Positions 2,278 to 31,803 of a DNA stretch of 64,000 bases are shown one piece after another (within the stretch, counting starts at the first letter, position 1; every line of letters starts with the position of its first letter). The stretch comes from Escherichia coli (GTDB taxonomy: Bacteria; Pseudomonadota; Gammaproteobacteria; Enterobacterales; Enterobacteriaceae). The translations under genes were made by a program, and so were the position numbers. The notes below the pieces were generated by a model. The model was not told the DNA's origin, did no database searches, and was given only the letters and a program-made list of their open reading frames with translations. The stretch is taken from assembly GCF_024502345.1 (NCBI RefSeq), contig NZ_JALDNN010000001.1; one strand, written 5' to 3'.

Positions 2278-2537
2278 GTAAAAATGCAGCGTGATTTTAT
2301 ATGCCTTTGAATGGATTATGCGAAGCGCCTCTAAGGCAGATGAGGAGCAATAGCATGCTGAAGTAGAAGGCTAAATTGTATTGAATCGCTAGCATGTAAT
2401 TTAAGGCAGCTATTTGATTCGAGTCATAAAAGAGCATCTATTTCGGCTAATAAAACCATTGCGAGTGACCTTTTGTCGAAGCATAATTCATCTCGAGCGA
2501 AGTCTTGCTAGTCTTTCATCGGAATGATGACAGGCGC

Positions 2538-2568
2538 AAAAAAACCACCCTGGCAGGTGGTTTTTTTG
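2538..2568. terminator. Bidirectional rho-independent terminator
   Basis: A-run, inverted repeat aaccacc/ggtggtt with loop ctggcag, then T-run (aaaaaaaccaccctggcaggtggttttttt). Confidence 0.6.
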
Positions 2569-2579
2569 TTTGAAGCATA

Positions 2580-2693
2580 CTAAAGAATAATACTTACATG
2601 GATATTACTGACGTTTACTGACAAACCACTTGGACTACCATATGGATAGCCAAAGAGGGCCAGAACGAGAATGCAGTAATAGCACTTCTTCAT
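2580..2693 (-). CDS. Hypothetical small hydrophobic peptide, 37 aa (MKKCYYCILVLALFGYPYGSPSGLSVNVSNIHVSIIL)
   Basis: ATG preceded by SD-like GGAGGAGAT; ORF ends just before the bidirectional terminator at 2538-2568; start overlaps stop of upstream minus-strand ORF 2690-2935 (ATGA); below the 60-aa cutoff of the ORF track. Confidence 0.25.
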   Translation of the reverse strand: MKKCYYCILVLALFGYPYGSPSGLSVNVSNIHVSIIL

Positions 2694-3263
2694 ATCTCCT
2701 CCTGTAAGCAGAGGGCAATTTCCGCCGATATATGCGCTTCTAAGGCGGAGTTACTATTTAGCGAAGTCTTGCCCTGAAATAATGCTCTGTTTAAACGCAA
2801 AGTGATCTGGCATATCACCGAACAGAGAGCCTGAACAACACAACATATAGTATGTCGTTGTTTCTGGTTGCATTTTATGTTGTGTAATACTGGTTTTGCA
2901 TCAAGGATGTTTGAGCTTTTTTTGATATAGCTCAAAGTAAAAAGCAGGGACTACGGATGATAAGGTATTGAAAGCAATGTAAATTTTTTAAAGTTATTGG
3001 TGGCTAAAAAATGCACGGTTTCAATATGGCGGACTTAAATAAGCAATTAAAAAAGTCATAAATATCACTAAAATCATGGTGTTACGTTTTTTGTGGGAGC
3101 TGCGGTGACGCTTAAGTTGATTTGTCATTAAATAAGCCGTGCATGCAACAAGTGAATGTTTTTGCATGCGTCGGGGATGCCCGTTCCAGCTGCTTGCGGT
3201 CAGAGCTGGTGCGGATCCATAGTATCTATGCAACTGCATTAAAACCGACTCATGAAGCGGGCG

Positions 3264-3282
3264 GGCGAGGCGGGGAAAGCAC
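3264..3282. other. cos: P2 cos cohesive-end sequence (19 nt GGCGAGGCGGGGAAAGCAC)
   Basis: Exact string present between gene A and Q, where cos lies in P2; the 19-nt sequence is recalled from P2/186 literature. Confidence 0.6.
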
Positions 3283-3421
3283 TGCGCGCTGGCGGTGGTG
3301 CTGATTTTATTTTTTCAGCGTCTGAGCGCGTCGTGAAGGCGTTTACTTGGCCTGCTGGGCGTTGGTGTGTCTGCGGGGTGTTTTGTGCGGTGGTGAGCGT
3401 GTGAGGGCGTGATGGCGGGGT

Positions 3422-3449
3422 GTAAAAAAGCCGCCCGCAGGCGGCGATG
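3422..3449 (-). terminator. Rho-independent terminator downstream of Q (minus strand)
   Basis: Minus strand reads gccgcctgcgggcggc hairpin followed by a T-run immediately after the Q stop. Confidence 0.55.
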
Positions 3450-3450
3450 T

Positions 3451-4485
3451 TCAGCCGTTGTCAGTGTCCAGTGAGTAGTTTTTAAAGCGGATGACCTCCT
3501 GACCGAGCCAGCCGTTTATCTCGCGGATCCTGTCCTGTAACGGGATAAGCTCATTGCGGACAAAGACCTTTGCCACTTTCTCTATATCACCCAGCGACCC
3601 GACGTTCTCCGGCTTGCCACCCATCAACTGAAAGGGGATGCGGTGCGCGTCCAGCAGGTCTGCGGCGCTGGCTTTTTTGATATTAAAAAAATCATCCTTC
3701 GTTGCCACTTCACTGAGCGGGATAATTTTAATGCCGTCGGCTTTCCCTTGTGGGGCATAGAGAAACAGGTTTTTAAAGTTGTTGCGGCCTTTCGACTTCA
3801 CCATGTTTTCGCGGAGCATTTCGATATCGTTGCGATCCTGCACGGCATCGGTGACGTACATGATGTATCCGGCATGTGCGCCGTTTTCGTAATACTTGCG
3901 GCGGAACAGCGTGGCCGACTCATTCAGCCAGGCAGAGTTAAGGGCGCTGAGATATTCCGGCAGGCCGTACAGCTCCTGATTAATATCCGGCTCCAGCAGG
4001 TGAAACACGGAGCCGGGCGCGAAAGGTGTCGGCTCATGGAAGGACGGCACCCACCAGTAAACATCCTCTTCCACGCCACGGCGGGTATATTTTGCCGGTG
4101 AGGTTTCCAGTCTGATGACCTTACCGGTGGTGCTGTAACGCTTTTCCAGAAACGCATTACCGAACACCAGAAAATCCAGCACAAAGCGGCTGAAATCCTG
4201 CTGGGAAAGCCACGGATGCGGGATAAATGTCGAGGCCAGAATATTGCGTTTGACGTAAATCGGCGAGCTGTGATGCACGGCAGCACGCAGGCTTTTCGCC
4301 AGACCGGTAAAGCTGACCGGCGGCTCATACCATCTGCCGTTACTGATGCACTCGACGTAATCCAGAATGTCACGGCGGTCGAGTACCGGCACCGGCTCAC
4401 CAAAGGTGAATGCCTCCATTTTCGGGGCGCTGGCGGTCATTTTTTTTGCCGCAGGTTGCGGTGTTTTCCCTTTTTTCTTACTCAT
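3451..4485 (-). CDS. Q: P2 gpQ portal protein (344 aa)
   Basis: 344 aa, same length as P2 Q; position next to cos and terminase P; stop overlaps P region. Confidence 0.9.
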   Translation of the reverse strand: MSKKKGKTPQPAAKKMTASAPKMEAFTFGEPVPVLDRRDILDYVECISNGRWYEPPVSFTGLAKSLRAAVHHSSPIYVKRNILASTFIPHPWLSQQDFSRFVLDFLVFGNAFLEKRYSTTGKVIRLETSPAKYTRRGVEEDVYWWVPSFHEPTPFAPGSVFHLLEPDINQELYGLPEYLSALNSAWLNESATLFRRKYYENGAHAGYIMYVTDAVQDRNDIEMLRENMVKSKGRNNFKNLFLYAPQGKADGIKIIPLSEVATKDDFFNIKKASAADLLDAHRIPFQLMGGKPENVGSLGDIEKVAKVFVRNELIPLQDRIREINGWLGQEVIRFKNYSLDTDNG

Positions 4486-6257
4486 CAGTAAAACTCCAGA
4501 ATGGTGGATGTCAGCGGGGTGCTGATACCGGCGGTGAGTGGCTCATTTAACAGGGCGTGCATGGTCGCCCAGGCGAGGTCGGCGTGGCTGGCTTCCTCGC
4601 TGCGGCTGGCCTCATAGGTGGCGCTGCGTCCGCTGCTGGTCATGGTCTTGCGGATAGCCATAAACGAGCTGGTGATGTCGGTGGCGCTGACGTCATATTC
4701 CAGACAGCCACGGCGGATAACGTCTTTTGCCTTGAGCACCATTGCGGTTTTCATTTCCGGCGTGTAGCGGATATCGCGCGCGGCGGGATAGAACGAGCGC
4801 ACGAGCTGGAACACGCCGACACCGAGGCCGGTGGCATCAATCCCGATGTATTCAACGTTATATTTTTCGGTGAGTTTGCGGATGGATTCCGCCTGGGTGG
4901 CAAAGTCCATGCCTTTCCACTGGTGACGCTCAAGTATTCTGAATTTGCCACCGGCCACCACCGGCGGTGCCAGTACCACGCATCCGGCGCTGTCGCCACG
5001 GTGTGACGGGTCGTAACCAATCCATACCGGGCGGGAGCCGAACGGATTGGCGGCAAAGGGTGCATAGTCTTCCCATTCTTCCAGCGTGTCGACCATGCAG
5101 CGTTGCAGCTCCTCGAACGGGAACACCGACGCCTTGTCGTCAACAAATTCACACATGAACAGGTTTTTAAAATCGTCGGCGCTGTTTTCGCGTTTGAGCT
5201 GCTCAATGTCGAACAGCGTGCAGCCACCTTTCAGGGCGTCCTCAATGGTGACAATCTGTCGCCACTGGCCGTCCGCACAGAGAAGCCCACCGGCAAGGGC
5301 GTTATGACTGACGTCGATTTCCACGCGTTCGGCGGCGCTGGCGCGTCCCCGGTTAAACAGTGCACCCGACCAGAACGGGTAGGCGTCGTGCGCCAGCGTG
5401 GACGGGGTGGAGAAATAGGTCGAACGCAGGTGACTCTGTGAGGCCATACCTGATGCCACCTTACGCAGTACCTGAAAATTCGGGATCCAGAAAATCTCGT
5501 CGACGTACAGGTCGCCGTTATGGCTCTGTGCGGTGTTGGAGTTGGTGCCGAGAAAAATCAGTTTTGCGCCGTTATTGCCCAGGACAATCGGGTCACCGGT
5601 CAGGTCAACGTCAACCAGCCGGGCAAAGGCGATGATGTATTCACGGAACACATACGCCTGCGTTTTACTGGCCGACAGAAAAATCTGGTTATGGCCGGTT
5701 TTCAGGGCGCGCAGCAGCGCCTCGCGGGAAAAATAAAACGTTGCGCCAATCTGACGGGATTTCAGGATATCGCGGATGCGGTGCTCAAGCCCGGCGCGAT
5801 ACCAGTGCAGCTGATAGTCGAAAGACTGCTCAAAGAAAATCTGCTCCAGCTTTTCGATGGCCTCGTCACTGAAAAAATTCTTTTTCGGTTTGCGACGCCC
5901 GCCTTTGTTGCGGTTAGCGATGTTCGGATTAAGGTCTGCCTCGTTGCCGGTCTGGCTGTAACGGTTGACCCGTGCCAGTCGTTCAATCTGGCGTCCCAGC
6001 AGGTCAATTTCCTTGAAGTCCCCGCCGGTTTTCTGCGGTTTGATGATGAGCTGGGTCAGCCGCGCTTCCAGACTCATTTCGACACGGCTGATGGGGGCAA
6101 CGCTGTCCCAGCCGTCGCGCTGTTTCCAGCTCTGCACCGTCGGGCGTTTCATCTGCAACATGGCGGCAATCTGCGGCACGGAAAACCCCTGCCAGTACAG
6201 CAGCGCCGCCTGACGACGCGGGTCGTGTAAAAGAGTGGTGTCTGTGGTGATGGTCAT
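4485..6257 (-). CDS. P: P2 gpP terminase large (ATPase) subunit (590 aa from internal ATG)
   Basis: ORF-track frame 4485-6287; start placed at MTITTDTTLL (ATG 6257) to match P2 gpP length; terminase-like translation. Confidence 0.9.
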   Translation of the reverse strand: MTITTDTTLLHDPRRQAALLYWQGFSVPQIAAMLQMKRPTVQSWKQRDGWDSVAPISRVEMSLEARLTQLIIKPQKTGGDFKEIDLLGRQIERLARVNRYSQTGNEADLNPNIANRNKGGRRKPKKNFFSDEAIEKLEQIFFEQSFDYQLHWYRAGLEHRIRDILKSRQIGATFYFSREALLRALKTGHNQIFLSASKTQAYVFREYIIAFARLVDVDLTGDPIVLGNNGAKLIFLGTNSNTAQSHNGDLYVDEIFWIPNFQVLRKVASGMASQSHLRSTYFSTPSTLAHDAYPFWSGALFNRGRASAAERVEIDVSHNALAGGLLCADGQWRQIVTIEDALKGGCTLFDIEQLKRENSADDFKNLFMCEFVDDKASVFPFEELQRCMVDTLEEWEDYAPFAANPFGSRPVWIGYDPSHRGDSAGCVVLAPPVVAGGKFRILERHQWKGMDFATQAESIRKLTEKYNVEYIGIDATGLGVGVFQLVRSFYPAARDIRYTPEMKTAMVLKAKDVIRRGCLEYDVSATDITSSFMAIRKTMTSSGRSATYEASRSEEASHADLAWATMHALLNEPLTAGISTPLTSTILEFY

Positions 6258-6430
6258 GAATACCTCGCCGTGATGAATACACGGCAAGGCTACTGAGTCG
6301 CGCCCCGCGATTCGCTAAGGTGCTGTTGTGTCAGTGATAAGCCATCCGGGACTGATGGCGGAGGATGTGCATCGTCGGGAAACTGATGCCGACATGTGAC
6401 TCCTCTAATCACTATTCAGGACTCCTGACA

Positions 6431-7285
6431 ATGGCAAAAAAAGCATCAAAATTCTTTCGTATCGGCGTTGAGGGTGACACCTGTGACGGGCGTGTCATCA
6501 GTGCGCAGGATATTCAGGAAATGGCCGAAACCTTTGACCCGCGAGTCTATGGTTGCCGCATTAACCTGGAACATCTGCGCGGCATCCTGCCTGACGGTAT
6601 TTTTAAGCGTTATGGCGATGTGGCCGAACTGAAGGCCGAAAAGATTGCCGATGATTCGGCGCTGAAAGGCAAATGGGCGCTGTTTGCGAAAATCACCCCG
6701 ACCGATGACCTTATCGCGATGAACAAGGCCGCGCAGAAGGTCTATACCTCAATGGAAATTCAGCCGAACTTTGCCAATACCGGCAAATGTTATCTGGTGG
6801 GTCTGGCCGTCACCGATGACCCGGCAAGCCTCGGCACGGAATACCTGGAATTCTGCCGCACGGCAAAACACAACCCCCTGAACCGCTTCAAATTAAGCCC
6901 TGAAAACCTGATTTCAGTGGCAACGCCTGTTGAGCTGGAATTTGAAGACCTGCCTGAAACCGTGTTCACCGCCCTGACCGAAAAGGTGAAATCCATTTTT
7001 GGCCGCAAACAGGCCAGCGATGACGCCCGTCTGAATGACGTGCATGAAGCGGTGACCGCTGTTGCTGAACATGTGCAGGAAAAACTGAGTGCCACTGAGC
7101 AGCGCCTCGCTGAGATGGAAACCGCCTTTTCCGCACTTAAGCAGGATGTGACTGACAGGGCGGATGAAACCAGCCAGGCATTCACCCGCCTGAAAAACAG
7201 CCTCGACCACACCGAAAGTCTGACCCAGCAGCGCCGCAGCAAGGCCACCGGCGGTGGCGGTGACGCCCTGATGACGAACTGCTGA
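6431..7285 (+). CDS. O: P2 gpO capsid scaffolding protein (284 aa)
   Basis: Start placed at MAKKASKFFRIGVEGDTC within ORF 6365-7285; divergent from P as in P2. Confidence 0.9.
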   Translation: MAKKASKFFRIGVEGDTCDGRVISAQDIQEMAETFDPRVYGCRINLEHLRGILPDGIFKRYGDVAELKAEKIADDSALKGKWALFAKITPTDDLIAMNKAAQKVYTSMEIQPNFANTGKCYLVGLAVTDDPASLGTEYLEFCRTAKHNPLNRFKLSPENLISVATPVELEFEDLPETVFTALTEKVKSIFGRKQASDDARLNDVHEAVTAVAEHVQEKLSATEQRLAEMETAFSALKQDVTDRADETSQAFTRLKNSLDHTESLTQQRRSKATGGGGDALMTNC

Positions 7286-7343: not shown

Positions 7344-8417
7344 ATGCGCCAGGAAACCCGCTTTAAATTTAATGCCTATCTGTCCCGTGTTGCCGAACTG
7401 AACGGCATCGACGCCGGTGATGTGTCGAAAAAATTCACCGTTGAACCGTCGGTCACCCAGACCCTGATGAACACCATGCAGGAGTCCTCTGATTTTCTGA
7501 CCCGCATCAACATTGTGCCGGTCAGCGAAATGAAAGGGGAAAAAATTGGCATCGGTGTCACCGGCTCCATCGCCAGCACCACCGACACCGCCGGTGGCAC
7601 CGAGCGTCAGCCGAAGGACTTCTCGAAGCTGGCGTCAAACAAGTACGAATGCGACCAGATTAACTTCGATTTTTATATCCGCTACAAAACGCTGGACCTG
7701 TGGGCGCGTTATCAGGATTTCCAGCTCCGTGTCCGTAATGCCATTATCAAACGCCAGTCCCTTGATTTAATCATGGCCGGTTTTAACGGCGTGAGGCGTG
7801 CCGAAACCTCTGACCGCAGCAGTAACCCGATGCTGCAGGATGTGGCGGTCGGCTGGCTGCAGAAATACCGCAATGAAGCCCCGGCGCGCGTGATGAGCAA
7901 GGTTACTGACGAGGAAGGTCACACGACCTCTGAGGTCATCCGCGTGGGTAAGGGCGGTGATTATGCCAGCCTCGATGCACTGGTGATGGATGCGACCAAC
8001 AACCTGATTGAGCCGTGGTATCAGGAAGACCCTGACCTTGTGGTGATTGTGGGGCGTCAGCTACTGGCGGACAAGTATTTCCCCATCGTTAACAAGGAGC
8101 AGGACAACAGCGAAATGCTGGCCGCTGACGTCATCATCAGCCAGAAACGCATCGGTAACCTGCCGGCGGTACGCGTCCCGTACTTCCCGGCGGATGCGAT
8201 GCTCATCACGAAGCTGGAAAACCTGTCCATCTACTACATGGATGACAGCCATCGCCGCGTGATTGTGGAAAACCCGAAACTCGACCGCGTGGAGAACTAC
8301 GAGTCAATGAACATTGATTACGTGGTGGAAGACTACGCCGCCGGTTGTCTGGTGGAAAAAATTAAGGTCGGTGATTTCTCCACACCGGCTAAGGCGACCG
8401 CAGAGCCGGGAGCGTAA
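7344..8417 (+). CDS. N: P2 gpN major capsid protein (357 aa)
   Basis: 357 aa, P2 N size and position after O. Confidence 0.9.
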   Translation: MRQETRFKFNAYLSRVAELNGIDAGDVSKKFTVEPSVTQTLMNTMQESSDFLTRINIVPVSEMKGEKIGIGVTGSIASTTDTAGGTERQPKDFSKLASNKYECDQINFDFYIRYKTLDLWARYQDFQLRVRNAIIKRQSLDLIMAGFNGVRRAETSDRSSNPMLQDVAVGWLQKYRNEAPARVMSKVTDEEGHTTSEVIRVGKGGDYASLDALVMDATNNLIEPWYQEDPDLVVIVGRQLLADKYFPIVNKEQDNSEMLAADVIISQKRIGNLPAVRVPYFPADAMLITKLENLSIYYMDDSHRRVIVENPKLDRVENYESMNIDYVVEDYAAGCLVEKIKVGDFSTPAKATAEPGA

Positions 8418-14102: not shown

Positions 14103-14446
14103 CTGCGCGTTATCTCGGAATGAATCGCAGTGATGGCCTGACTGTCACTGACCTTGAGCATATCAGCCAGAGTATCGGCGATATCCTGCGCACACCGGTC
14201 GGCTCACGGGTGATGCGTCGTGATTACGGCTCGTTGCTGGCGTCAATGATTGACCAGCCGCAGACCCCGGCGCTTGAGTTGCAGATTAAAGTCGCCTGTT
14301 ACATGGCAGTGCTGAAATGGGAACCCCGCGTCACCCTGTCATCCGTCACCACGGCGCGCAGTTTTGACGGGCGAATGACGGTCACGTTAACCGGTCAGCA
14401 CAACGACACCGGCCAGCCACTTTCGTTAACCATCACTGTGAGTTGA
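14099..14446 (+). CDS. W: P2 gpW baseplate protein (115 aa)
   Basis: 115 aa, overlapping start with V stop. Confidence 0.9.
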   Translation: MTARYLGMNRSDGLTVTDLEHISQSIGDILRTPVGSRVMRRDYGSLLASMIDQPQTPALELQIKVACYMAVLKWEPRVTLSSVTTARSFDGRMTVTLTGQHNDTGQPLSLTITVS

Positions 14447-14450
14447 AACC

Positions 14451-15359
14451 ATGCCGATTATCGACCTGAACCAGCTACCCGCACCGGATGTGGTCGAGGA
14501 GCTGGACTTTGAAACCATTCTTGCCGAACGCAAGGCGACACTGATTTCCCTTTACCCGGAAGACCAGCAGGAGGCGGTCGCCCGTACCCTGACGCTGGAA
14601 TCCGAGCCTCTCGTCAAACTGCTGGAGGAAAATGCGTATCGCGAGCTTATCTGGCGTCAGCGTGTGAATGAGGCTGCACGGGCGGTGATGCTGGCCTGTG
14701 CAGCCGGTAATGACCTTGATGTGATTGGTGCCAATTACAACACCACGCGCCTGACTATCACCCCGGCAGATGATTCGACCCTCCCGCCGACACCGGCAGT
14801 GATGGAATCTGACACGGATTATCGTCTGCGTATTCAGCAGGCGTTTGAAGGTTTAAGCGTTGCCGGGTCGGTGGGTGCCTATCAGTATCATGGTCGCAGT
14901 GCCGACGGGCGCGTCGCAGATATCTCTGTCACCAGTCCGTCTCCGGCCTGCGTCACCATCTCTGTGCTGTCACGTGAAAATAACGGTGTCGCATCCGAAG
15001 ACCTGCTGGCTGTGGTACGTAACGCCCTTAATGGCGAGGACGTCAGGCCGGTGGCCGACCGCGTGACCGTGCAGTCTGCCGCCATTGTTGAATATCAGAT
15101 AAACGCCACGCTTTACCTTTACCCTGGTCCCGAAAGCGAACCCATTCGCGCTGCCGCCGTGAAAAAACTGGAAGCGTATATCACGGCACAGCACCGGCTG
15201 GGGCGCGACATCCGTCTGTCTGCCATTTATGCCGCTTTGCATGTGGAAGGCGTGCAGCGTGTCGAACTGGCTGCACCACTGGCTGACATCGTGCTCAACA
15301 GTACGCAGGCGTCTTTCTGTACCGAATACCGCGTCGTGACCGGAGGCTCGGATGAGTGA
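14451..15359 (+). CDS. J: P2 gpJ baseplate protein (302 aa)
   Basis: 302 aa, position and size. Confidence 0.9.
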   Translation: MPIIDLNQLPAPDVVEELDFETILAERKATLISLYPEDQQEAVARTLTLESEPLVKLLEENAYRELIWRQRVNEAARAVMLACAAGNDLDVIGANYNTTRLTITPADDSTLPPTPAVMESDTDYRLRIQQAFEGLSVAGSVGAYQYHGRSADGRVADISVTSPSPACVTISVLSRENNGVASEDLLAVVRNALNGEDVRPVADRVTVQSAAIVEYQINATLYLYPGPESEPIRAAAVKKLEAYITAQHRLGRDIRLSAIYAALHVEGVQRVELAAPLADIVLNSTQASFCTEYRVVTGGSDE

Positions 15360-15892: not shown

Positions 15893-18211
15893 ATGAGCAC
15901 AAAATTCAGAACCGTTATCACCACTGCCGGTGCAGCAAAGCTGGCAGCGGCAACCGCACCGGGAGGGCGGAAGGTCAACATTACCACGATGGCCGTCGGG
16001 GATGGCGGTGGTAAATTGCCTGTCCCGGATGCCGGACAGACCGGGCTTATCCACGAAGTCTGGCGACATGCGCTGAACAAAATCAGCCAGGACAAACGAA
16101 ACAGTAATTATATTATCGCAGAGCTGGTTATTCCGCCGGAGGTGGGCGGTTTCTGGATGCGTGAGCTTGGCCTGTACGATGATGCGGGAACGTTAATTGC
16201 CGTGGCGAACATGGCCGAAAGTTATAAGCCAGCTCTTGCCGAAGGCTCAGGGCGTTCGCAGACCTGCCGCATGGTCATCATCGTCAGCAGTGTGGCCTCA
16301 GTGGAGCTGACCATTGACACTACAACGGTGATGGCAACGCAGGATTACGTTGATGACAAAATTGCAGAGCACGAACAGTCACGACGTCACCCGGACGCCT
16401 CGCTGACCGCAAAAGGTTTTACTCAGTTAAGCAGTGCGACCAACAGCACGTCTGAAACACTGGCCGCAACGCCGAAAGCGGTAAAGGCCGCCTATGACCT
16501 TGCTAACGGGAAATATACTGCGCAGGATGCCACCACGGCGCGAAAAGGCCTTGTTCAGCTCAGTAGTGTGACCAACAGCACGTCTGAAACGCTCGCCGCA
16601 ACGCCGAAAGCGGTAAAGGCAGCATATGACCTTGCTAACGGGAAATACACTGCACAGGACGCCACCACCGCGCGAAAAGGCCTTGTTCAGCTCAGTAGCG
16701 CCACCAACAGCGATTCTGAAACGCTTGCGGCAACACCAAAGGCGGTTAAGACAGCGTATGACCTTGCTAACGGGAAATACACTGCACAGGATGCCACCAC
16801 TGCGCGAAAAGGTCTTGTCCAGCTCAGTAGCGCCACCAACAGTGATTCTGAAACCCTCGCGGCAACGCCAAAAGCAGTGAAGTCTGCCTATGACAATGCT
16901 GAAAAACGTCTTCAGAAAGATCAGAACGGTGCGGATATTCCGGGAAAGGATACCTTTACGAAAAATATCGGTGCCTGTCGTGCTTATAGCGGCGCTTTGA
17001 GCACTGAAGCCGGAAACTGGACAACCGCTCAGTTTATTGAATGGCTGGATTCCCGTGGTGCATTTAATCATCCGTACTGGATGTGCAAAGGCTCCTGGTC
17101 ATATGCAAATAACAAAATCATTACGGATACCGGATGTGGTGATATCCACCTGGCTGGTTGTGTAGTCGAGGTCATGGGAACTAAATCTGCAATCACTATC
17201 CGAGTGACCACGCCGACAACATCAAGCGGTGGCGGTACAACCAGCGCACAATTCACTTACATTAATCATGGGGACGGCTACTCCCCCGGCTGGCGTCGTG
17301 ACTGGAATCGTCAGGGCGACTCAATGACCGGAACGATTAATCAGGATGGCGGAAGCCAGAATGCCTATATGTCTACGGCCTTATGTTCAGGCACCAGAGG
17401 CGGCAAAAAATATCTCAGAAAGTTTCGTGGTGGAGAAGGAGACACTATCTGGCATGAAACAGTGCAGGGCGGGGTAATTCGCTGGGCGACAGGAAACTAT
17501 GACGCTCAGGAAGAATTATCACTCAGCTCCGCTTATGGTCTCCGTTCTAGAGGTGAAATTACATCACTCAGTGCTAATGGTCTGCGCATTGCTTATGGCA
17601 ATTATGGATTCTTTATCAGGAATGATGGTGGCAGCACATATTTAATGCTGACGGCCTCTGGTGATAAATTTGGGACATGGAACGGTTTAAGGCCGCTGAC
17701 TATCAATAACGCTAATGGCGGAGTGTCAATGGGGCATGGCCTGAGTGTTACTGGTGATATTGCCTCAAGTACCAAAGTACGTGCCGGTAGCGGGAAAAAG
17801 TTCACGGTCAGCAGCAGCAATACATCCACGAAGGAAGCCGCATTCAATTTGTGGGGAAACTCAAGTCGTCCTGTGGTGGCTGAATTAGGTGATGATGCAG
17901 GCTGGCATTTTTACAGTCAGAGAAATACAGATAACAGCATCACTTTTGCTGTTAACGGGCAGGTATCACCATCTAACTATAGTAATTTTGATTCACGCTA
18001 TGTCCGGGATATCCGACTTGGTGGTGCTGCCACATACAAACCTGCTAACAATGGCATGACATGGACACATCAGGCACCGTCCGGGTGTGTATATTCCGGC
18101 ATTATTGTTCAGGATACCGGCTCAAACTCTGCCGATAACATTGGTGGCGTATATTACAGACCGGTGCAGAAATACATTAATGGGACTTGGTATAACGTGG
18201 CGCAGGTATAA
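15893..18211 (+). CDS. H: P2 gpH tail fiber protein (772 aa) with internal tandem repeats
   Basis: Conserved N-terminus MSTKFRTVITTAGAAKLAAATAPGG; four 44-aa repeats; variable C-terminal half. Confidence 0.9.
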   Translation: MSTKFRTVITTAGAAKLAAATAPGGRKVNITTMAVGDGGGKLPVPDAGQTGLIHEVWRHALNKISQDKRNSNYIIAELVIPPEVGGFWMRELGLYDDAGTLIAVANMAESYKPALAEGSGRSQTCRMVIIVSSVASVELTIDTTTVMATQDYVDDKIAEHEQSRRHPDASLTAKGFTQLSSATNSTSETLAATPKAVKAAYDLANGKYTAQDATTARKGLVQLSSVTNSTSETLAATPKAVKAAYDLANGKYTAQDATTARKGLVQLSSATNSDSETLAATPKAVKTAYDLANGKYTAQDATTARKGLVQLSSATNSDSETLAATPKAVKSAYDNAEKRLQKDQNGADIPGKDTFTKNIGACRAYSGALSTEAGNWTTAQFIEWLDSRGAFNHPYWMCKGSWSYANNKIITDTGCGDIHLAGCVVEVMGTKSAITIRVTTPTTSSGGGTTSAQFTYINHGDGYSPGWRRDWNRQGDSMTGTINQDGGSQNAYMSTALCSGTRGGKKYLRKFRGGEGDTIWHETVQGGVIRWATGNYDAQEELSLSSAYGLRSRGEITSLSANGLRIAYGNYGFFIRNDGGSTYLMLTASGDKFGTWNGLRPLTINNANGGVSMGHGLSVTGDIASSTKVRAGSGKKFTVSSSNTSTKEAAFNLWGNSSRPVVAELGDDAGWHFYSQRNTDNSITFAVNGQVSPSNYSNFDSRYVRDIRLGGAATYKPANNGMTWTHQAPSGCVYSGIIVQDTGSNSADNIGGVYYRPVQKYINGTWYNVAQV
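16412..16939 (+). repeat. Four tandem 132-bp repeats inside tail fiber gene H
   Basis: Repeated unit KG(L/F)xQLSSxTNSxSETLAATPKAVKxAYDLANGKYTAQDATTAR visible in protein and DNA; fourth copy diverges. Confidence 0.8.
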
Positions 18212-18214
18212 TTT

Positions 18215-18742
18215 ATGCAGCATTTGATAAATATAATGGCAGGTAATCCAAAAACGGTTGAACAATATCAATTGACAAAGGACTTTGATGTTGTCTGGTT
18301 TTTTTCAGAAGATGGTAAGAACTGGTACGAAGAACAAAAGTATTTTGCTGATGACACGATAAAAATAGCGTACGACAAAGATAATATTATCCGCTATGTG
18401 GAAAAGGATGTGACAGCTATCAGACCGGATGGATTAAGTGTTGTTGAAGTGCCGGATATTACTGCTAACCGACGGGCGGACATTTCAGGGAACTGGATGT
18501 TTAAGGACGGTACAGTGATTAAACGAATTTATACGGCAGAGGAATTGCAGCAGCAGGCAGAAAATCGGAAAGCCAGACTTCTTGCAGATGCTGAATCCGT
18601 GATTTTGCCGCTGGAGCGCGCTGTCAGGCTGAATATGGCAACAGATGAGGAGCGCAGTCGACTGGAGGCATGGGAACGCTACAGTGTTCTGGTCAGTCGT
18701 GTGGATCCTGCAAATCCTGAATGGCCGGAAATGCCGCAATAA
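18215..18742 (+). CDS. G: P2 gpG tail fiber assembly chaperone (175 aa)
   Basis: 175 aa, immediately after H. Confidence 0.85.
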
Positions 18743-18864
18743 GTTGTATGAGCTCTGGTGTGAGCTTACATATCTATGGCACAGAGTAAAGCCTAATCTG
18801 AGAGTCCGCTCTGTGCCAGGAGGGGACGTTGCTCACCTATAAATATCCCAGCAAAACGGAACAC

Positions 18865-19673
18865 TCATCTTTGCAATCTTTTTATGTTTATATAAAGTTC
18901 CTCAATCAGCTCTTCCGAATTTTGACTGTAATGCAATGCCCGATGGCAATTCGGGCATAATGCAACACAATTGCTTATGGTGTCAGCACCAGATAAAGAA
19001 AGAGGTATCACATGATACACTTCGAGATATGGGATATCGCCATTTATTAAGAACGGTGTATTTTCACTACATCTTTCACAAACGCCCTTACTCCCTTGCA
19101 ATACACAAGATTTAACAGCAAGATCCCGAATATAAACCTTCTGAACTCTTTCTAATGTTCCAGTTTTTTATGTCCCTCGGACTCGTTCAAAGGAATTTAT
19201 ATTAGCTTACTGACCATTTTACTTAGAACACTCTCATCATTAGTGGCTCGAAAAGCACTGATGTATCTCCGTAGATGATAGGTTTCCAAAATTCAGCACT
19301 ATTAACACTAGGAACATTTATCATTACTCGCTCAGTTCTGTTCCCTGATGGTGCATCTTTTTTAGCAGTACTGTTCAAATGAGTCTGATACATACACATT
19401 TTTTGGGAAATATCGGAAGGGTAGTTTCCCACTAAAGAAAATTACATCATCAGGATGTATTTTTCTTTCCGCTATAGATGGTATATGTCTTCCGGTTGAT
19501 GATGAGGCCAAATACACAACGCCTTTGTTTACCCCGGAATCAATAAGTCGTCCAATGATATAATCGATGGCAATATTATAATCTTTGTTTCTATGCGCCA
19601 GTCATCAGGGCTCAAATATCAGGCCATATACCCCATCTTCTTCACCTACTAGGCACTCAACGTTCAGTTCCAT
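18865..19673 (-). pseudogene. mcrA-like HNH endonuclease gene (type IV 5-methylcytosine restriction family), disrupted by several frame changes
   Basis: Pieces in three frames: MELNVECLVGEEDGVYGLIFEP; AHRNKDYNIAIDYIIGRLIDSGVNKGVVYLASSSTGRHIPSIAERKIHPDDV; ...SGNRTERVMINVP...; intact C-terminal HNH core CERC...PYLEVYHVIPLSLSGADTISNCVALCPNCHRALH. These resemble McrA as recalled from memory. Confidence 0.6.
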
Positions 19674-19877
19674 ACCATTGTTATCAAGAGATTGCTTTGT
19701 ATTGCGCGGGAAACGTCTAGTTTGAATTAAGGAATTGTGAGGCGGAAGATGGGATTTAGGAATTTGGTTAGAGTTAGCAATGTTAATAAATGGGCCTAAT
19801 TTCACTTTAAATCAAATTCCTAAATATTAAAGAAAGCAAGCTGGCCTACATAAACAGCCAGCCTTGGATAATTCAAT

Positions 19878-21692
19878 TCACTTCTTACATAGAATGCTGG
19901 GTTTTACTCCGTACTCAACACATGCACTCAAAAATGTATTTATAAGCCAGATTAGCTGAACAGTATAAGGTTTGGCTGACTGATTTCTCTTGATGATTTC
20001 CACCTCATCGATTAACATTTTTTTTCTTAAAAATGGAGCAGCTAATATTAACTCCCTACTAGTTTTCGGACTCTCATTAATTTTGTCAAGAGCTAACTCA
20101 ATGTCATTCCTGGAAGTGTCAATTGGTCTAATTCTACTAATCTGCGTTTGTAAATATTTTGAAGACCATTCATTATCATATTTATCAAGGTAAAGTTCTT
20201 TTGGTGAATGTAATCTGCCAATATTTTTTAAAGCTTGACTTATAACTTCATGAAATTTACTGGCGCCATAGCTCTCTTTTTTAATATATTTAGAATGAAT
20301 AAACTTTATGGATGGATTTCCTGTCGTGATATCCAGCACAATATGATCGGCCCACTCATCATTCATATCATCACAAATTACAATAGCATCTTTATTTGAA
20401 TAGATATTCTCCACTCGTCTAAATAGCGATCTCACTGGAAATCTTTTAATATTTTCTGGATAAGATTGTTTGTCATCTTTCTCTTTTTCCGATCTGATTG
20501 TTGAAAAATCAAAGCTATCATCAAAAACGGACAGGAAAATATTCAAATTATTTAACATCGTTTTATCTTCAAAACACGAACGACCATGATAGCAATATTG
20601 GGGGGAATCGAAGGTTATAGTGAATGGCTTAAACTTGTTAATATATTTACTAAGCGACATTAACTGAGAACCATTTTCACTAATCATTATACCATCGAGA
20701 TATTTGGATACTATAGTCACAACCTTAGTATTGAATCTCAGACGACATTTGAATTTGAATCTTAAATTGGTTAGCGTTTCACCATCTAAGAAATATGATG
20801 ATTTAAATCCATTGAAAAATTTGTCAAGTTCAACAGAACTTAACGTCACCGTTCCATGAGGCACATTTTTTGTTAGTGTAAAAGTATGGGACGTGCCACG
20901 CACCATATCATCCAACTCGCTAAGATCTATAAAAATAGCTTTTGGCTTGACTTTTTTTGCTAATAATTCACTCAAAGTAATAGGGGAAGAGAAACCTGCC
21001 ATTAGCTTACTTGACAAAGAGGCTGTGTTAGATAATTCATTTACTGTAGCTATTGCCCATGAGCAGAAATTAAAAAAATCCACTTTTTTATCTTTGTAGC
21101 CTATTCGTGAAGTATTTGGTGTTAAAGTAAATATGTCATTTCCTGTCTTGACTCTAAATGTCCCTGGAATTGAACGTCCAGTCGTGTTAGGAGAAAGAAT
21201 GCCACTTAGATTTTTTGCTTCCACTGTTCTATTTCTTATCACTGAATCTGACAGTGACATATTCCTCATGCTAATTTTTTCATACTCAGGATTCAGCCTT
21301 CCATTAAAATTTGAAAATTTATCAAACTCAAAGTATTCTATGAACCTTTCCAACTCGCTTTCAATTGCATCAACATTTTTCTTCGAAATTATTAAAAAAT
21401 CCTGAACCTCCAAGATCATTAGATACGCATACTTGCTTTCTGAAATGCTAGTGCCTTGTAGAAATGAAGGCTCTTCTAGAACTTTAAAAGACACCAAAGA
21501 GTAAGTTAAATTCCCATTATCTACAACAACTTCAGATTTAATTTTATTTATAAGAAAGACACCATCTTTTATCGAGGATATGCTTCTAAATAGATTTTTT
21601 ATTTTATTTCTAGATAAAGGTTTTTTTATCTTAAAAAATTGTGCATTTTTTGATAAAATTAAATCATTGATACTGAAAATATATTTAGTCAC
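19878..21692 (-). CDS. Orphan AT-rich protein of unknown function (604 aa), prophage hotspot cargo
   Basis: Long uninterrupted ORF in very AT-rich DNA; GTG start 8 nt after AAGGA; no Walker A, no YxDD box, no HNH seen by eye; C-terminal segment AIVICDDMNDEWADHIVLD...IKFIHSKY could be a nuclease-like acidic/basic cluster. Confidence 0.6.
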   Translation of the reverse strand: MTKYIFSINDLILSKNAQFFKIKKPLSRNKIKNLFRSISSIKDGVFLINKIKSEVVVDNGNLTYSLVSFKVLEEPSFLQGTSISESKYAYLMILEVQDFLIISKKNVDAIESELERFIEYFEFDKFSNFNGRLNPEYEKISMRNMSLSDSVIRNRTVEAKNLSGILSPNTTGRSIPGTFRVKTGNDIFTLTPNTSRIGYKDKKVDFFNFCSWAIATVNELSNTASLSSKLMAGFSSPITLSELLAKKVKPKAIFIDLSELDDMVRGTSHTFTLTKNVPHGTVTLSSVELDKFFNGFKSSYFLDGETLTNLRFKFKCRLRFNTKVVTIVSKYLDGIMISENGSQLMSLSKYINKFKPFTITFDSPQYCYHGRSCFEDKTMLNNLNIFLSVFDDSFDFSTIRSEKEKDDKQSYPENIKRFPVRSLFRRVENIYSNKDAIVICDDMNDEWADHIVLDITTGNPSIKFIHSKYIKKESYGASKFHEVISQALKNIGRLHSPKELYLDKYDNEWSSKYLQTQISRIRPIDTSRNDIELALDKINESPKTSRELILAAPFLRKKMLIDEVEIIKRNQSAKPYTVQLIWLINTFLSACVEYGVKPSILCKK

Positions 21693-22214
21693 TTTGATGT
21701 CCTTATAATTAACATTTGATTATTCAAGAACAACTAGACAGCACTTCAGAGAAAATCAAATGGGAAATGGAATAGTTTAGATTCAGAAGATTACATTAAC
21801 ACGTAATATATTAAAAGTAATTATCTAAAACAATATTAATTATTGACTCGCGCAGTATTTAACTGCAAAAATTTGATTTAGGTCGTTTTTTTCTTACAAA
21901 GGCCAAGCCGCCAGGCCCGAAATGCCGCCTCTGCCGGTTAGCGCAATTGGGCTGACGCCCCGGGGCACTGGGGAGCCGAAACTTTAAGAAATCCGGAGAA
22001 TTGACCGTTATTTGAAATAAAAATGCCATTGTAACTTTCGTGTTTAGGCATAGAAAAATTTCCTTTTAACAAAACATAGTAATACTAGTAATGCGCCTTG
22101 TGCGGTGATCAAAATTGCGAACTTCCGCTCCTCGCTCAAAGCAGACTGTCAGATTTGATAGCGTTTTGGCTATGTAAATTGTCAGTCGGAAAATGAGTGA
22201 GTACAAACTAGGAC

Positions 22215-22240
22215 AGGCGGGCGAATTGCCCGCCTTTTCT
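22215..22240 (+). terminator. Rho-independent terminator upstream of FI
   Basis: ggcgggcg-aatt-gcccgcc hairpin followed by ttttct. Confidence 0.55.
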
Positions 22241-22338
22241 GTATCTGTTGTTTCATCCACTGACCAGACAGGTCAAATAGCGTCTCATGCTCTGCCCAAC
22301 GGAAAATAGTTGCACCCATTAACCACGGAGTTAAACGG

Positions 22339-23529
22339 ATGAGTGACTATCATCACGGCGTGCAGGTGCTGGAGATTAACGACGGCACCCGCGTCATTTC
22401 CACCGTATCCACTGCCATTGTCGGCATGGTCTGTACGGCCAGCGATGCAGATGCGGAAACCTTCCCCCTCAATAAACCGGTGTTGATTACCAATGTGCAG
22501 AGCGCAATTGCAAAGGCCGGTAAAAAAGGCACGCTGGCGGCATCGTTGCAGGCCATCGCTGACCAGTCAAAACCGGTCACCGTTGTCGTGCGCGTGGAAG
22601 ACGGCACCGGTGATGACGAGGAAACGAAACTCGCGCAGACCGTTTCCAATATCATCGGCACCACCGACGAAAACGGTCAGTACACCGGACTGAAAGCCCT
22701 GCTGGCGGCGGAGTCGGTAACCGGTGTTAAACCGCGTATTCTCGGCGTGCCGGGACTGGACACCAAAGAGGTGGCTGTTGCACTGGCATCAGTCTGTCAG
22801 AAGCTGCGCGCTTTCGGGTATATCAGCGCATGGGGCTGTAAAACTATTTCCGAGGTGAAAGCCTACCGCCAGAATTTCAGCCAGCGTGAGTTGATGGTCA
22901 TCTGGCCGGATTACCTCGCATGGGATACGGTCACCAGTACCACCGCCACCGCGTATGCCACCGCCCGTGCGCTGGGTCTGCGCGCTAAAATCGACCAGGA
23001 GCAGGGCTGGCATAAAACACTGTCCAACGTTGGGGTGAACGGTGTTACCGGCATCAGCGCATCTGTATTCTGGGATTTGCAGGAGTCCGGCACCGATGCT
23101 GACCTGCTGAATGAGTCAGGCGTCACAACGCTGATTCGCCGTGACGGTTTCCGCTTCTGGGGTAACCGTACCTGCTCTGATGACCCGCTGTTCCTCTTTG
23201 AAAACTACACCCGCACCGCGCAGGTACTGGCCGACACGATGGCTGAGGCGCACATGTGGGCGGTGGACAAGCCCATCACCGCAACGCTGATTCGCGACAT
23301 CGTTGACGGCATCAATGCCAAATTCCGTGAGCTGAAAACAAACGGTTATATCGTGGATGCGACCTGCTGGTTCAGCGAAGAATCCAACGATGCGGAAACC
23401 CTCAAGGCCGGAAAACTGTATATCGACTATGACTATACACCGGTGCCTCCTCTCGAAAACCTGACCCTGCGCCAGCGTATTACCGATAAATACCTGGCGA
23501 ATCTGGTCACCCCGGTTAACAGCAATTAA
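22339..23529 (+). CDS. FI: P2 gpFI tail sheath protein (396 aa)
   Basis: 396 aa, size and position. Confidence 0.9.
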   Translation: MSDYHHGVQVLEINDGTRVISTVSTAIVGMVCTASDADAETFPLNKPVLITNVQSAIAKAGKKGTLAASLQAIADQSKPVTVVVRVEDGTGDDEETKLAQTVSNIIGTTDENGQYTGLKALLAAESVTGVKPRILGVPGLDTKEVAVALASVCQKLRAFGYISAWGCKTISEVKAYRQNFSQRELMVIWPDYLAWDTVTSTTATAYATARALGLRAKIDQEQGWHKTLSNVGVNGVTGISASVFWDLQESGTDADLLNESGVTTLIRRDGFRFWGNRTCSDDPLFLFENYTRTAQVLADTMAEAHMWAVDKPITATLIRDIVDGINAKFRELKTNGYIVDATCWFSEESNDAETLKAGKLYIDYDYTPVPPLENLTLRQRITDKYLANLVTPVNSN

Positions 23530-31470: not shown

Positions 31471-31803
31471 TTACGTATTGTCTTTTACCGTCTGACTTGT
31501 GCCATTGGCTTTAACGGAGGCAATTCCGGTTTCACGAGATTGCGCGGTGGCGTACATCTGGCTGGAGCCGATAATTTGATGATTGGCGGCTTTCAGATTG
31601 AAATAGAATTTGCCGTTACTTGCCGTTTTTTTCTCATAGCGTTCTTCTTGCGGGCTGTTGCTACGCACCGACGCGATGCCCTTTTCCGCAGAGGCTTTTG
31701 AGGTATACAGCTCGCTGGTGAGGATAGTCTCACCATTGCCCGCTTTTAGCACAAACCGGAACTGATTATCACTGCTCTTACTGAGTTCAAACCAACCAGC
31801 CAT
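31471..31803 (-). CDS. yegP: UPF0339/DUF1508 protein YegP (110 aa)
   Basis: Start at MAGWFELSKSSDNQFRFVLKAGNGE; two tandem DUF1508-like halves. Confidence 0.85.
   Translation of the reverse strand: MAGWFELSKSSDNQFRFVLKAGNGETILTSELYTSKASAEKGIASVRSNSPQEERYEKKTASNGKFYFNLKAANHQIIGSSQMYATAQSRETGIASVKANGTSQTVKDNT

Follow-up and report, generated by a model that had tools for sequence, protein, structure and literature searches.

A G+C-rich segment upstream of a phage-defence candidate gene in a P2-like prophage: probably a decayed copy of a structured element from conjugative plasmids

A short G+C-rich segment is found upstream of a 604-aa gene in the cargo region of an Escherichia coli prophage. 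This raises the question of what the segment is and whether it does anything for the gene next to it. The window, i.e. the whole stretch of 64,000 nt that was analysed, represents a P2-like prophage and is 100% identical to E. coli O19:H7 730V1. A preliminary description of this DNA pointed to a GC-rich patch with a perfect palindrome and proposed that it may be a recombination junction, a structured RNA or a regulatory site.

The patch is real and has the position that was described. The segment (21893-21985) has a G+C content of 0.645, as against 0.26 in the left flank (21693-21892), 0.333 in the right flank (21986-22123) and 0.349 in the cassette as a whole. It is situated within AT-rich cargo, 211 nt upstream of the minus-strand gene. 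Both sequence strings that had been singled out are present, ggccaagccgccaggcccgaaatgccgcctctgccgg at 21901-21937 and acgccccggggcactgggg at 21955-21973, and so is the 10-nt palindrome, GCCCCGGGGC, at 21957-21966. By itself this palindrome is unremarkable; by our own estimate, which is not the output of a program, a stretch of ~90 G+C-rich positions should contain a perfect 10-nt palindrome about 0.1-0.35 times. It results from a conserved hairpin (H3, see below), of which it overlaps the 5′ arm and the loop. The contrast in composition exceeds chance, because the segment is homologous to a family of G+C-rich elements. The features are listed in Table 1.

Table 1. Features of the cassette, the segment and the neighbouring prophage genes (positions in the window)
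Feature	Position	Strand	Remarks
Tail-fibre gene H	15893-18211		
Tail-fibre assembly gene G	18215-18742		
Mobile cassette, 3.34 kb	18804-22146	.	HNH remnant, PDC-S71 and 450-bp non-coding leader
Left junction hairpin	18804-18827	+	GTCCGCT-CTGTGCCAGG-AGGGGAC, full GTCCGCTCTGTGCCAGGAGGGGAC; shared block starts there in L002/L003 and L188
HNH type IV methyl-directed restriction enzyme pseudogene	18865-19805	-	Downstream of PDC-S71; three frameshifted ORF fragments
PDC-S71, 604-aa gene, PADLOC phage-defence candidate	19878-21692	-	PDLC05077, E=1.1e-218, full length
G+C-rich segment as degenerate short-form LRE copy	21893-21994	+	Covariance model, nhmmer, blastn
j1 remnant (AGCCGCCAGG) and H1 5′ arm (CCCGAAA)	21906-21922	+	H1 3′ arm missing; alignments, 44-copy parse
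H2 3′ arm (CCGGTTAGC) and junction motif j3	21934-21957	+	H2 arm partnerless; alignment
Helix H3, CCCCGG / loop GGCA / CTGGGG	21958-21973	+	Sole helix kept; sequence; arms compensated relative to family CCCGGC/GCCGGG
TTGACC motif	22001-22006	+	Right flank; common with right flank of many Pantoea copies (..GTTGACCTTCAG..); MAFFT, 31 copies with flanks
Right junction hairpin	22124-22146	+	TCCGCT-CCTCGCTCAA-AGCAGAC, full TCCGCTCCTCGCTCAAAGCAGAC; shared block ends 22144-22152 in all four contexts
Tail sheath gene FI	22339-23529		

The cassette that carries the segment

The 604-aa protein, PDC-S71, gave nothing significant in a Pfam search, and a literature search on PDC-S71 found nothing. It has 162 homologues in Gammaproteobacteria and beyond, and its closest relatives include an Erwinia protein with 92% identity. 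The fragments of the HNH pseudogene match successive parts of the PADLOC entry mREase_IV (PDLC03656), with a Pfam HNH match at E=1e-12.

The cassette is found in several other settings. It is 99.7% identical over 3,343-3,349 bp in two non-phage E. coli islands (L002 and L003), 98.7% identical in a prophage contig from IMG/VR (L187), and 92.3% identical in an integrase island of Providencia rettgeri that adjoins smpB (L188). The segment is present in 8 of 5,426 complete E. coli genomes, each time with the same gene, and among these genomes sequence of the window type is confined to the PDC-S71 cassette.

All four contexts diverge within copies of the hairpin motif TCCGCT-N10-AGCGGAC, at 18804-18809 on the left and at 22137-22152 on the right, and each context retains its own outer half of the hairpin sites. 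The right junction is 143 nt to the right of the end of the segment's core match (21980). A recombination junction or scar at the segment itself, joining the island to the prophage, would agree with the abrupt change in composition and with the location near the edge of the AT-rich cargo. The contexts do not, however, diverge at 21880-22010. Positions 21693-21892 and 21986-22146 travel with the segment at 92-100% identity in the four unrelated contexts, so that the same DNA is present on both sides of it, and divergence is seen only within the terminal hairpin sites. In P2, Wphi and other P2-like phages, backbone homology begins only at 22104-22124. Since the contexts diverge at the hairpin sites and the flanks travel along, the segment is internal cargo of the cassette, and a junction at this place is very improbable. 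The segment may nevertheless be the trace of a far earlier fusion of plasmid-derived with AT-rich DNA.

The two hairpin sites recur in P2 and Wphi around their own, different G/FI cargo, and the left site follows gene G. In the P2/Wphi backbone the arms CTGACAG and CTGTCAG form inverted repeats. The left-junction stretch (18796-18840) has matches in 1,446 of the 5,426 E. coli genomes. An empty G/FI site was found in none of these 5,426 genomes, and the sole record that matched on both sides did so over 613 bp, in two pieces. The hairpin motif, with both loop types, also adjoins many copies of the plasmid element described below in Pantoea/Mixta plasmid contigs. By way of its terminal hairpin sites, the cassette would be exchanged among genomic islands that include the variable G/FI locus of P2. 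A third match to the motif, at 31739-31760, is inside baeR and was set aside as a chance match. A terminator scan of 21600-22400 displayed one terminator-like hairpin, at 22215-22235, which is part of the P2 backbone.

Nilsson et al. reportedly treated the variable cargo loci of P2-like phages in 2004. The PDC-S71 cassette resembles such cargo in that it sits in the G/FI locus, where other genes are found in P2 (Z/fun) and Wphi (orf44). No mention of hairpin sites bounding the G/FI cargo, or of a plasmid-derived fossil, was found in the papers on P2-like cargo that were read. The P2-like hotspot with old/tin that has been analysed elsewhere adjoins cos and not G/FI (PMC9122126).

A structured element of plasmid leading regions

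A phage collection searched with positions 21700-22140 gave no match. In a blastn search of plasmids, the segment displays 80-86% identity to intergenic repeats that bear no annotation; they occur in 32 Erwiniaceae and related plasmids, up to five in each. This unnamed family is termed here the leading-region element (LRE). A covariance model (R1) that was built from 16 Pantoea copies alone finds 21893-21994 at 32.8 bits (E=6e-7) as its sole match in the 64-kb window; full-length members score 58-156 bits with the same model. An nhmmer profile built without the window copy matches 21903-21980 with profile positions 11-111 of 123 (E=3.1e-9). By the sequence and covariance profiles of the other members, the segment belongs to the LRE family.

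Intact LREs are non-coding and have a length of 123-138 nt in the copies that were read (alignments of 31 and later of 49 copies). A full-length Pantoea copy used as query was found at 8,114 places in 3,355 plasmid records (2,656 Klebsiella, 2,498 conjugative). Conjugative plasmids of enterobacteria carry 2-8 LREs each, in their leading regions. A search of the 5,426 complete E. coli genomes with a Klebsiella-type copy yielded 334 places, all of them on plasmids and none chromosomal. Loose gapped pattern scans were of limited use: they gave 120 metagenome and 41 viral stretches, nearly all chance matches in G+C-rich DNA, and only L032, L060, L061, L105 and L169 contain real LREs. A strict pattern was too lineage-specific and found only 15 Pantoea/Mixta stretches in genome contigs.

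The Pantoea agglomerans plasmid NZ_CP090210 will serve as an example. The stretch examined (L023) has eight LRE copies as determined by nhmmer, and six mapped copies are situated 200-530 nt upstream of successive operons on the same strand. The genes of this region include ssb, psiB, psiA and genes for a ParB-like protein, a methyltransferase, a DUF3560 protein and a RadC-like protein. IncF plasmids of K. pneumoniae and E. asburiae have four copies each between oriT and parM/stbA, all on the T-strand (5′ to 3′ away from oriT) and antisense to the leading-region genes. The orientation of the LRE is always that of the transferred strand. Each LRE of a Klebsiella plasmid (L024) is 78-81 nt distal to a homologue of F ssiD/Frpo, a spacing that was measured in this one plasmid. 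In Enterobacter and Pantoea, the Frpo-like hairpins that precede the LRE copies are of other types.

The LRE fold consists of a 3-bp closing helix (P0), an inner 3-bp helix (P5), and three covarying hairpins (H1-H3) with near-invariant junctions. When 44 copies were parsed by the invariant junction motifs, the three hairpins were found to vary in sequence between lineages with pairing kept. For H1, CCGAA/TTCGG is replaced by CCGGA/TCCGG, and the inner stem is CCC/GGG, CGC/GCG or CGCC/GGCG. For H2, ACCGGC/GCCGGT is replaced by ACCGCG/CGCGGT, GCCAGGC/GCCTGGC or CGGCGG/CCGCC. For H3, CCCGGC/GCCGGG is replaced by CCGGACAGC/GCTGGCCGG, CTGCCC/GGGCAG or CTGGCCAGC/GCTGGTCAG, and 4 of its 6 pairs display compensatory changes across the family. 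The closing helix joins both ends of the element, and its middle pair may be C-G, A-T, T-A or G-C. In the inner helix, CCC of junction j1 pairs with GGG of junction j3, with C-G, A-T or T-A as the middle pair.

In an alignment of 49 copies, which was fitted to the model and whose copies are phylogenetically clustered, a model with four helices has 97.7% of its cells paired, as against 87.1 +/- 0.5% in shuffles and 24-53% in slid controls where the partner was moved by 1-3 columns, and 13 of 23 pairs are compensatory; an extended structure, with the inner 3-bp helix and a 3-bp extension of H2, has 97.2% paired (87.7% in shuffles, 30-54% in slid controls) and 16 of 29 pairs compensatory. None of 500 shuffles reached the value observed for the extended structure on any measure. 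Three of four full-length copies have ssDNA fold z-scores of -2.5 to -3.2. Wobble cells number 15 for G.T and 5 for A.C; H2 and H3 favour the plus strand and H1 the minus strand. The excess of G.T points only weakly to the T-strand orientation as the strand that folds.

A raw MAFFT alignment gave a muddled consensus in RNAalifold, with one covarying pair, and was replaced by the hand-parsed architecture and a covariance-model alignment. The helix GTTAGC/GCTGAC from RNAalifold was rejected, since Enterobacter copies alter one of its sides with no compensation. Resemblances noted by eye to a hammerhead (CUGANGA...GAAA), to an integron attC site (R″/R′ cores) and to the D-arm of a tRNA were dropped; in each case the motif does not fit and Rfam is silent.

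Rfam 15 was searched with 37.7 kb of plasmid loci (three stretches with 15 full-length copies, E up to 1) and gave no match at any LRE copy. A scan of window positions 18000-23000 with E up to 10 gave nothing in the segment, and only chance-level matches at E>1 elsewhere. The LRE is therefore outside every curated Rfam family. A literature search yielded no description of the LRE as an element of its own, but an earlier account may exist beyond the literature that was searched.

The closest comparison is with the Frpo/ssi ssDNA promoters of conjugative plasmids, such as F ssiD and ColIb-P9 ssi1-3 (Masai and Arai 1997; PMC11541004; PMC12672017). LREs occur in the same long intergenic gaps of the T-strand leading region, with one LRE per Frpo unit. 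Samuel et al. 2024 (PMC11541004, supplementary file 4) list 400-nt candidate regions, of which ‘Frpo*4’ and ‘Frpo*5’ take in the first ~30-100 nt of the LRE at their far end; to this extent the published ‘Frpo*’ candidates already cover part of the family. Frpo and the ssDNA promoters of classes 1-3, however, each consist of one long hairpin in which -35 and -10 boxes are rebuilt (PMC12672017), whereas the LRE is a separate multi-helix junction of ~125 nt without promoter boxes, upstream of the promoter relative to transcription. It is unlike all three of these promoter classes, and its sequence resembles neither F ssiD nor ColIb Frpo1. The window copy displays neither a ~200-330 nt hairpin with promoter boxes nor homology to Frpo/ssi, and a promoter scan of 21600-22400 gave only weak, chance-level promoter-like sites, on the plus strand.

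The radC and STAXI motifs are structured, are found upstream of ssb, radC and anti-restriction genes, and have been proposed to act as ssDNA. LREs likewise accompany genes of incoming mobile DNA and may act as ssDNA, but the LRE copies have no match in Rfam 15. With REP and ERIC repeats and MITEs the LRE shares a short, G+C-rich, hairpin-forming sequence that is present intergenically in multiple copies and hitch-hikes with neighbouring genes. Unlike these, it is restricted to plasmids (0 chromosomal among the 334 places in E. coli), keeps to one orientation and one partner, Frpo, and lacks terminal inverted repeats and target duplications.

The copy in the prophage

The window copy has lost most of this architecture, and H3 is the one helix that it can still form. 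P0 is missing or mutated on both sides, P5 on its 5′ side, H1 in its 3′ arm and H2 in its 5′ arm. The H2 loop and both termini are also lost; because of the latter the closing helix cannot form. Loss of the H1 3′ arm together with the H2 5′ arm and loop represents a 33-nt deletion between two CGGTT direct repeats. Junction motif j3, which has near-invariant columns across the family, is kept with three substitutions and reads AGCGCAATTGGGCTGACG as against the family consensus AGCGCAGTGGGGCTGACGA. As RNA, the window copy has fold z-scores versus shuffles of -0.27 (minus strand) and +0.77 (plus strand); as ssDNA it has +0.99, no better than shuffles. Thus the idea of a structured nucleic acid holds for the family, with its five covarying helices, but not for the copy in the prophage, which has lost four of the five and folds like shuffled sequence.

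The setting has changed as well. Intact LREs are on the T-strand of a conjugative leading region, distal to a Frpo-type hairpin, whereas this copy is in a chromosomal P2-like prophage. A blastn search with five Frpo/ssi sequences found no Frpo homology in the whole window. The sole feature of the plasmid setting that is kept is the orientation relative to the downstream gene, which could be more than coincidence. A tblastn search of plasmids with PDC-S71 gave only four records, all distant; therefore PDC-S71 is not a typical leading-region gene.

Taken together, the segment is probably a decayed LRE copy that came from conjugative plasmids and not from phages, and is most likely a functionless fossil in the cassette. 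The functionless state is inferred from the lost helices and the altered setting: a prophage is not moved as a single strand by conjugation and no Frpo is nearby, so that the LRE copy would do nothing there. As a fossil, it would mark part of the non-coding DNA of the cassette as having once come from an Erwiniaceae-type plasmid.

Two homologous Erwinia/Pantoea plasmid loci have the short form as well, deleted between identical end-points, upstream of the defence operon DUF6694-qatABCD; these two (H44 and H45) are the only blastn plasmid matches that span the deletion. A short variant may thus have a function of its own, e.g. as a cis-element for the control of PDC-S71 in the cassette and of the Qat operon in the Erwiniaceae plasmids, in the form of a 5′-leader, an antisense structure or a site to which a protein binds. 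In two independent settings it has the same orientation, 200-320 nt upstream of a minus-strand defence gene, and j3 and H3 are kept, with compensatory changes in H3. Several observations speak against such a role. The short form is known only from the two plasmids and the PDC-S71 cassette (8 of 5,426 E. coli genomes), and it has no significant fold on either strand.

Comparison with the Providencia cassette is also unfavourable to a working element. The segment differs there at 14 of 92 positions (15.2%), 11 of the 14 being changes from G/C to A/T, as against 35 of 335 (10.4%) in the non-coding flanks; this is one comparison with little power (Fisher p=0.20). The Providencia copy has j3 and H3 degraded. 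The preliminary description had named conservation no higher than that of a recombination scar, along with the lack of a transcript, as what would refute its proposal, and the conservation seen here is no higher.

In addition, PDC-S71 homologues whose protein identity is 64% or less lack the segment. Those at 64% (~69% at the nucleotide level; P0004 and P0005, with L189, L190 and L193 compared by blastn and L189-L193 scanned with the profile) share nothing with the window upstream of position -13 and have no LRE. Homologues of the P0004/P0005 type are chromosomal and adjoin an AsnC-type regulator. The segment accompanies PDC-S71 only in the cassette lineage of at least 92% nucleotide identity (L002, L003, L187 and L188), and a conserved cis-partner of PDC-S71 it is not. 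A cis-acting role of the short form thus appears unlikely.

A non-coding RNA partner of the 604-aa protein, such as that of a retron, is a far more doubtful proposition. A G+C-rich non-coding stretch followed by a gene is superficially like msr-msd followed by a reverse transcriptase (RT). The 604-aa protein, however, has no RT or other Pfam domain, and the segment has no adjacent RT and no msr/msd-type RNA. Rfam holds a retron msr family, and the segment has no Rfam match up to E=10. Moreover, the more distant PDC-S71 homologues lack the segment, and its own homologues adjoin dozens of unrelated plasmid genes. A retron-like arrangement had been considered from the first and set aside, and this was right.

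Equally hard to credit is a small protein encoded by the segment. A 56-aa open reading frame on the minus strand (21859-22029) has an ATG start, spans the segment and is still open in the Providencia copy. An open frame is to be expected from the G+C-rich composition, however, and the translated sequence has no Pfam match. At ~15% nucleotide divergence, 10 of 45 aligned residues differ between the E. coli and Providencia sequences and the C-terminus is frameshifted. The homologous plasmid DNA is non-coding and structured. Thus there is no sign of coding constraint, either in the Providencia comparison or in Pfam.

Proposed role of the intact element and its meaning

The location of intact LREs next to Frpo suggests what they may do. 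Folded on the incoming single strand, an LRE would probably act together with Frpo, as a compact structural barrier or as a binding platform. Because the T-strand is read 3′ to 5′, complementary-strand synthesis reaches the LRE first. It would meet the LRE just before the promoter hairpin, and early expression could be prolonged in this way. The barrier idea was prompted by a preprint, which reports Frpo itself as a roadblock that is resolved by UvrD (bioRxiv 10.64898/2026.01.09.698686). A role of the LRE as RNA, e.g. as a 3′-UTR structure of the upstream operon, is possible.

A broader proposal is offered tentatively, with less assurance than the fossil origin of the segment. The LRE family may be an undescribed structured element of ssDNA (or RNA) and an obligatory partner of Frpo-type promoters in thousands of clinically important conjugative plasmids (Klebsiella/Enterobacter IncF, pOXA-48-size, Pantoea). 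It may control early establishment, e.g. by stalling complementary-strand synthesis in front of the promoter or by attracting a protein of the host or of the plasmid. The TCCGCT-N10-AGCGGAC sites, for their part, may mark a route by which cassettes are exchanged among plasmid leading regions, the P2 G/FI locus and chromosomal defence islands. Short hairpin sites flank the P2 G/FI cargo as well as the same cassette in unrelated islands and genera, and this is open to test.

For PDC-S71 itself, the GC patch appears to be neither an RNA partner nor a regulator, and work on this gene can ignore it. As a fossil, the LRE copy would record a flow of DNA from conjugative leading regions, with their anti-defence cargo, to a phage-borne defence cassette. 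For plasmids, the timing of early gene expression and of strand conversion after entry is an active question (PMC9849209; bioRxiv 10.64898/2026.01.09.698686). A five-helix element that is absent from Rfam and is coupled one-to-one with Frpo in >3,000 plasmids may bear on this timing.

Hairpin sites at the cassette ends and in related cargo

The hairpin motif TCCGCT-N10-AGCGGAC forms both ends of the 3.34-kb cassette, and it does so in four unrelated contexts. Its loops are of two types, ..TGTGCCAG.. and ..CTCGCTCA... The G/FI cargo of phages P2 and Wphi, i.e. the variable cargo between genes G and FI, is unlike that of the cassette but is also flanked by TCCGCT-N10-AGCGGAC, and the arms CTGACAG and CTGTCAG of the P2/Wphi backbone at this locus are inverted repeats. 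The motif often adjoins leading-region elements (LREs) in Pantoea and Mixta plasmids. A search of 5,426 E. coli genomes for an empty G/FI site yielded none. TCCGCT-N10-AGCGGAC looks like a putative recombination site or a MITE-like end.

Positions of TCCGCT-type hairpin sites and short-form LREs
Feature	Locus	Positions
Hairpin sites	Window	18804-18827 and 22124-22146
Hairpin sites	L002 (non-phage E. coli island)	3106-3127 and 6425-6446
Hairpin sites	L188 (Providencia rettgeri island)	4550-4571 and 7857-7878
Hairpin sites	L195 (P2)	1403-1424 and 3001-3022
Hairpin sites	L194 (Wphi)	3005-3026; other one after G, about 1845-1870
Hairpin sites	L011 and L008	numerous
Additional hairpin	L002/L003 (non-phage E. 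coli islands)	1354-1375
Hairpin site	L005 (Erwinia pyri plasmid)	1823-1844
Short-form LRE	L005	1491-1591
Short-form LRE	L007 (P. agglomerans plasmid)	1496-1594

Two features belong to the prophage outside the cassette. The plus strand of the P2 backbone carries a strong terminator-like hairpin (window 22215-22235; AGGCGGGCGAATTGCCCGCCT, then TTTTCT) just upstream of FI. The tail fibre gene H carries tandem repeats of ~132 nt at 16411-16900, detected as internal blastn self-matches and in translation, which encode four copies of the unit ..SSxTNSxSETLAATPKAVKxAYDLANGKYTAQDATTARKGLVQL...

HNH gene decay and a larger shared block

Downstream of PDC-S71, the gene for an HNH type IV methyl-directed restriction enzyme (window 18865-19805, minus strand) is split into at least three frames. 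Every cassette copy shows the same decay, including that of Providencia, where the sole HNH call is a 25-aa fragment. Pseudogenisation therefore took place before the cassette spread.

The two non-phage E. coli islands have in common a block larger than the cassette (1357-6438, 5.08 kb, 99.9% identity), which also holds a DUF6602-domain gene. This gene has its own TCCGCT-type hairpin boundary, which suggests a series of cassettes delimited by hairpins.

The leading-region element in other plasmids

The Erwinia pyri and P. agglomerans copies are of the same short form as that of the window, with a 33-nt deletion between CGGTT repeats. About 310 nt downstream of them, a gene for a DUF6694 lipoprotein precedes qatA, and the element thus once more stands ahead of a defence operon. 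In the Erwinia plasmid a TCCGCT-type hairpin lies ~240 nt to the right of the LRE, an arrangement like that of the window.

In stretch L023 of P. agglomerans plasmid NZ_CP090210, an LRE copy (L023 14252-14373) begins ~40 nt past the stop codon of a 255-aa leading-region gene (14415-15182) annotated as a 'reverse transcriptase domain-containing protein'.

In E. coli, 63,589-bp plasmids (e.g. NZ_LR025098.1, 32552-32639) carry a single diverged LRE copy, with 77% identity across two-thirds of the element. Their length is the exact size of pOXA-48. The diverged copy in these plasmids therefore indicates that the LRE family is not confined to IncF-type backbones.
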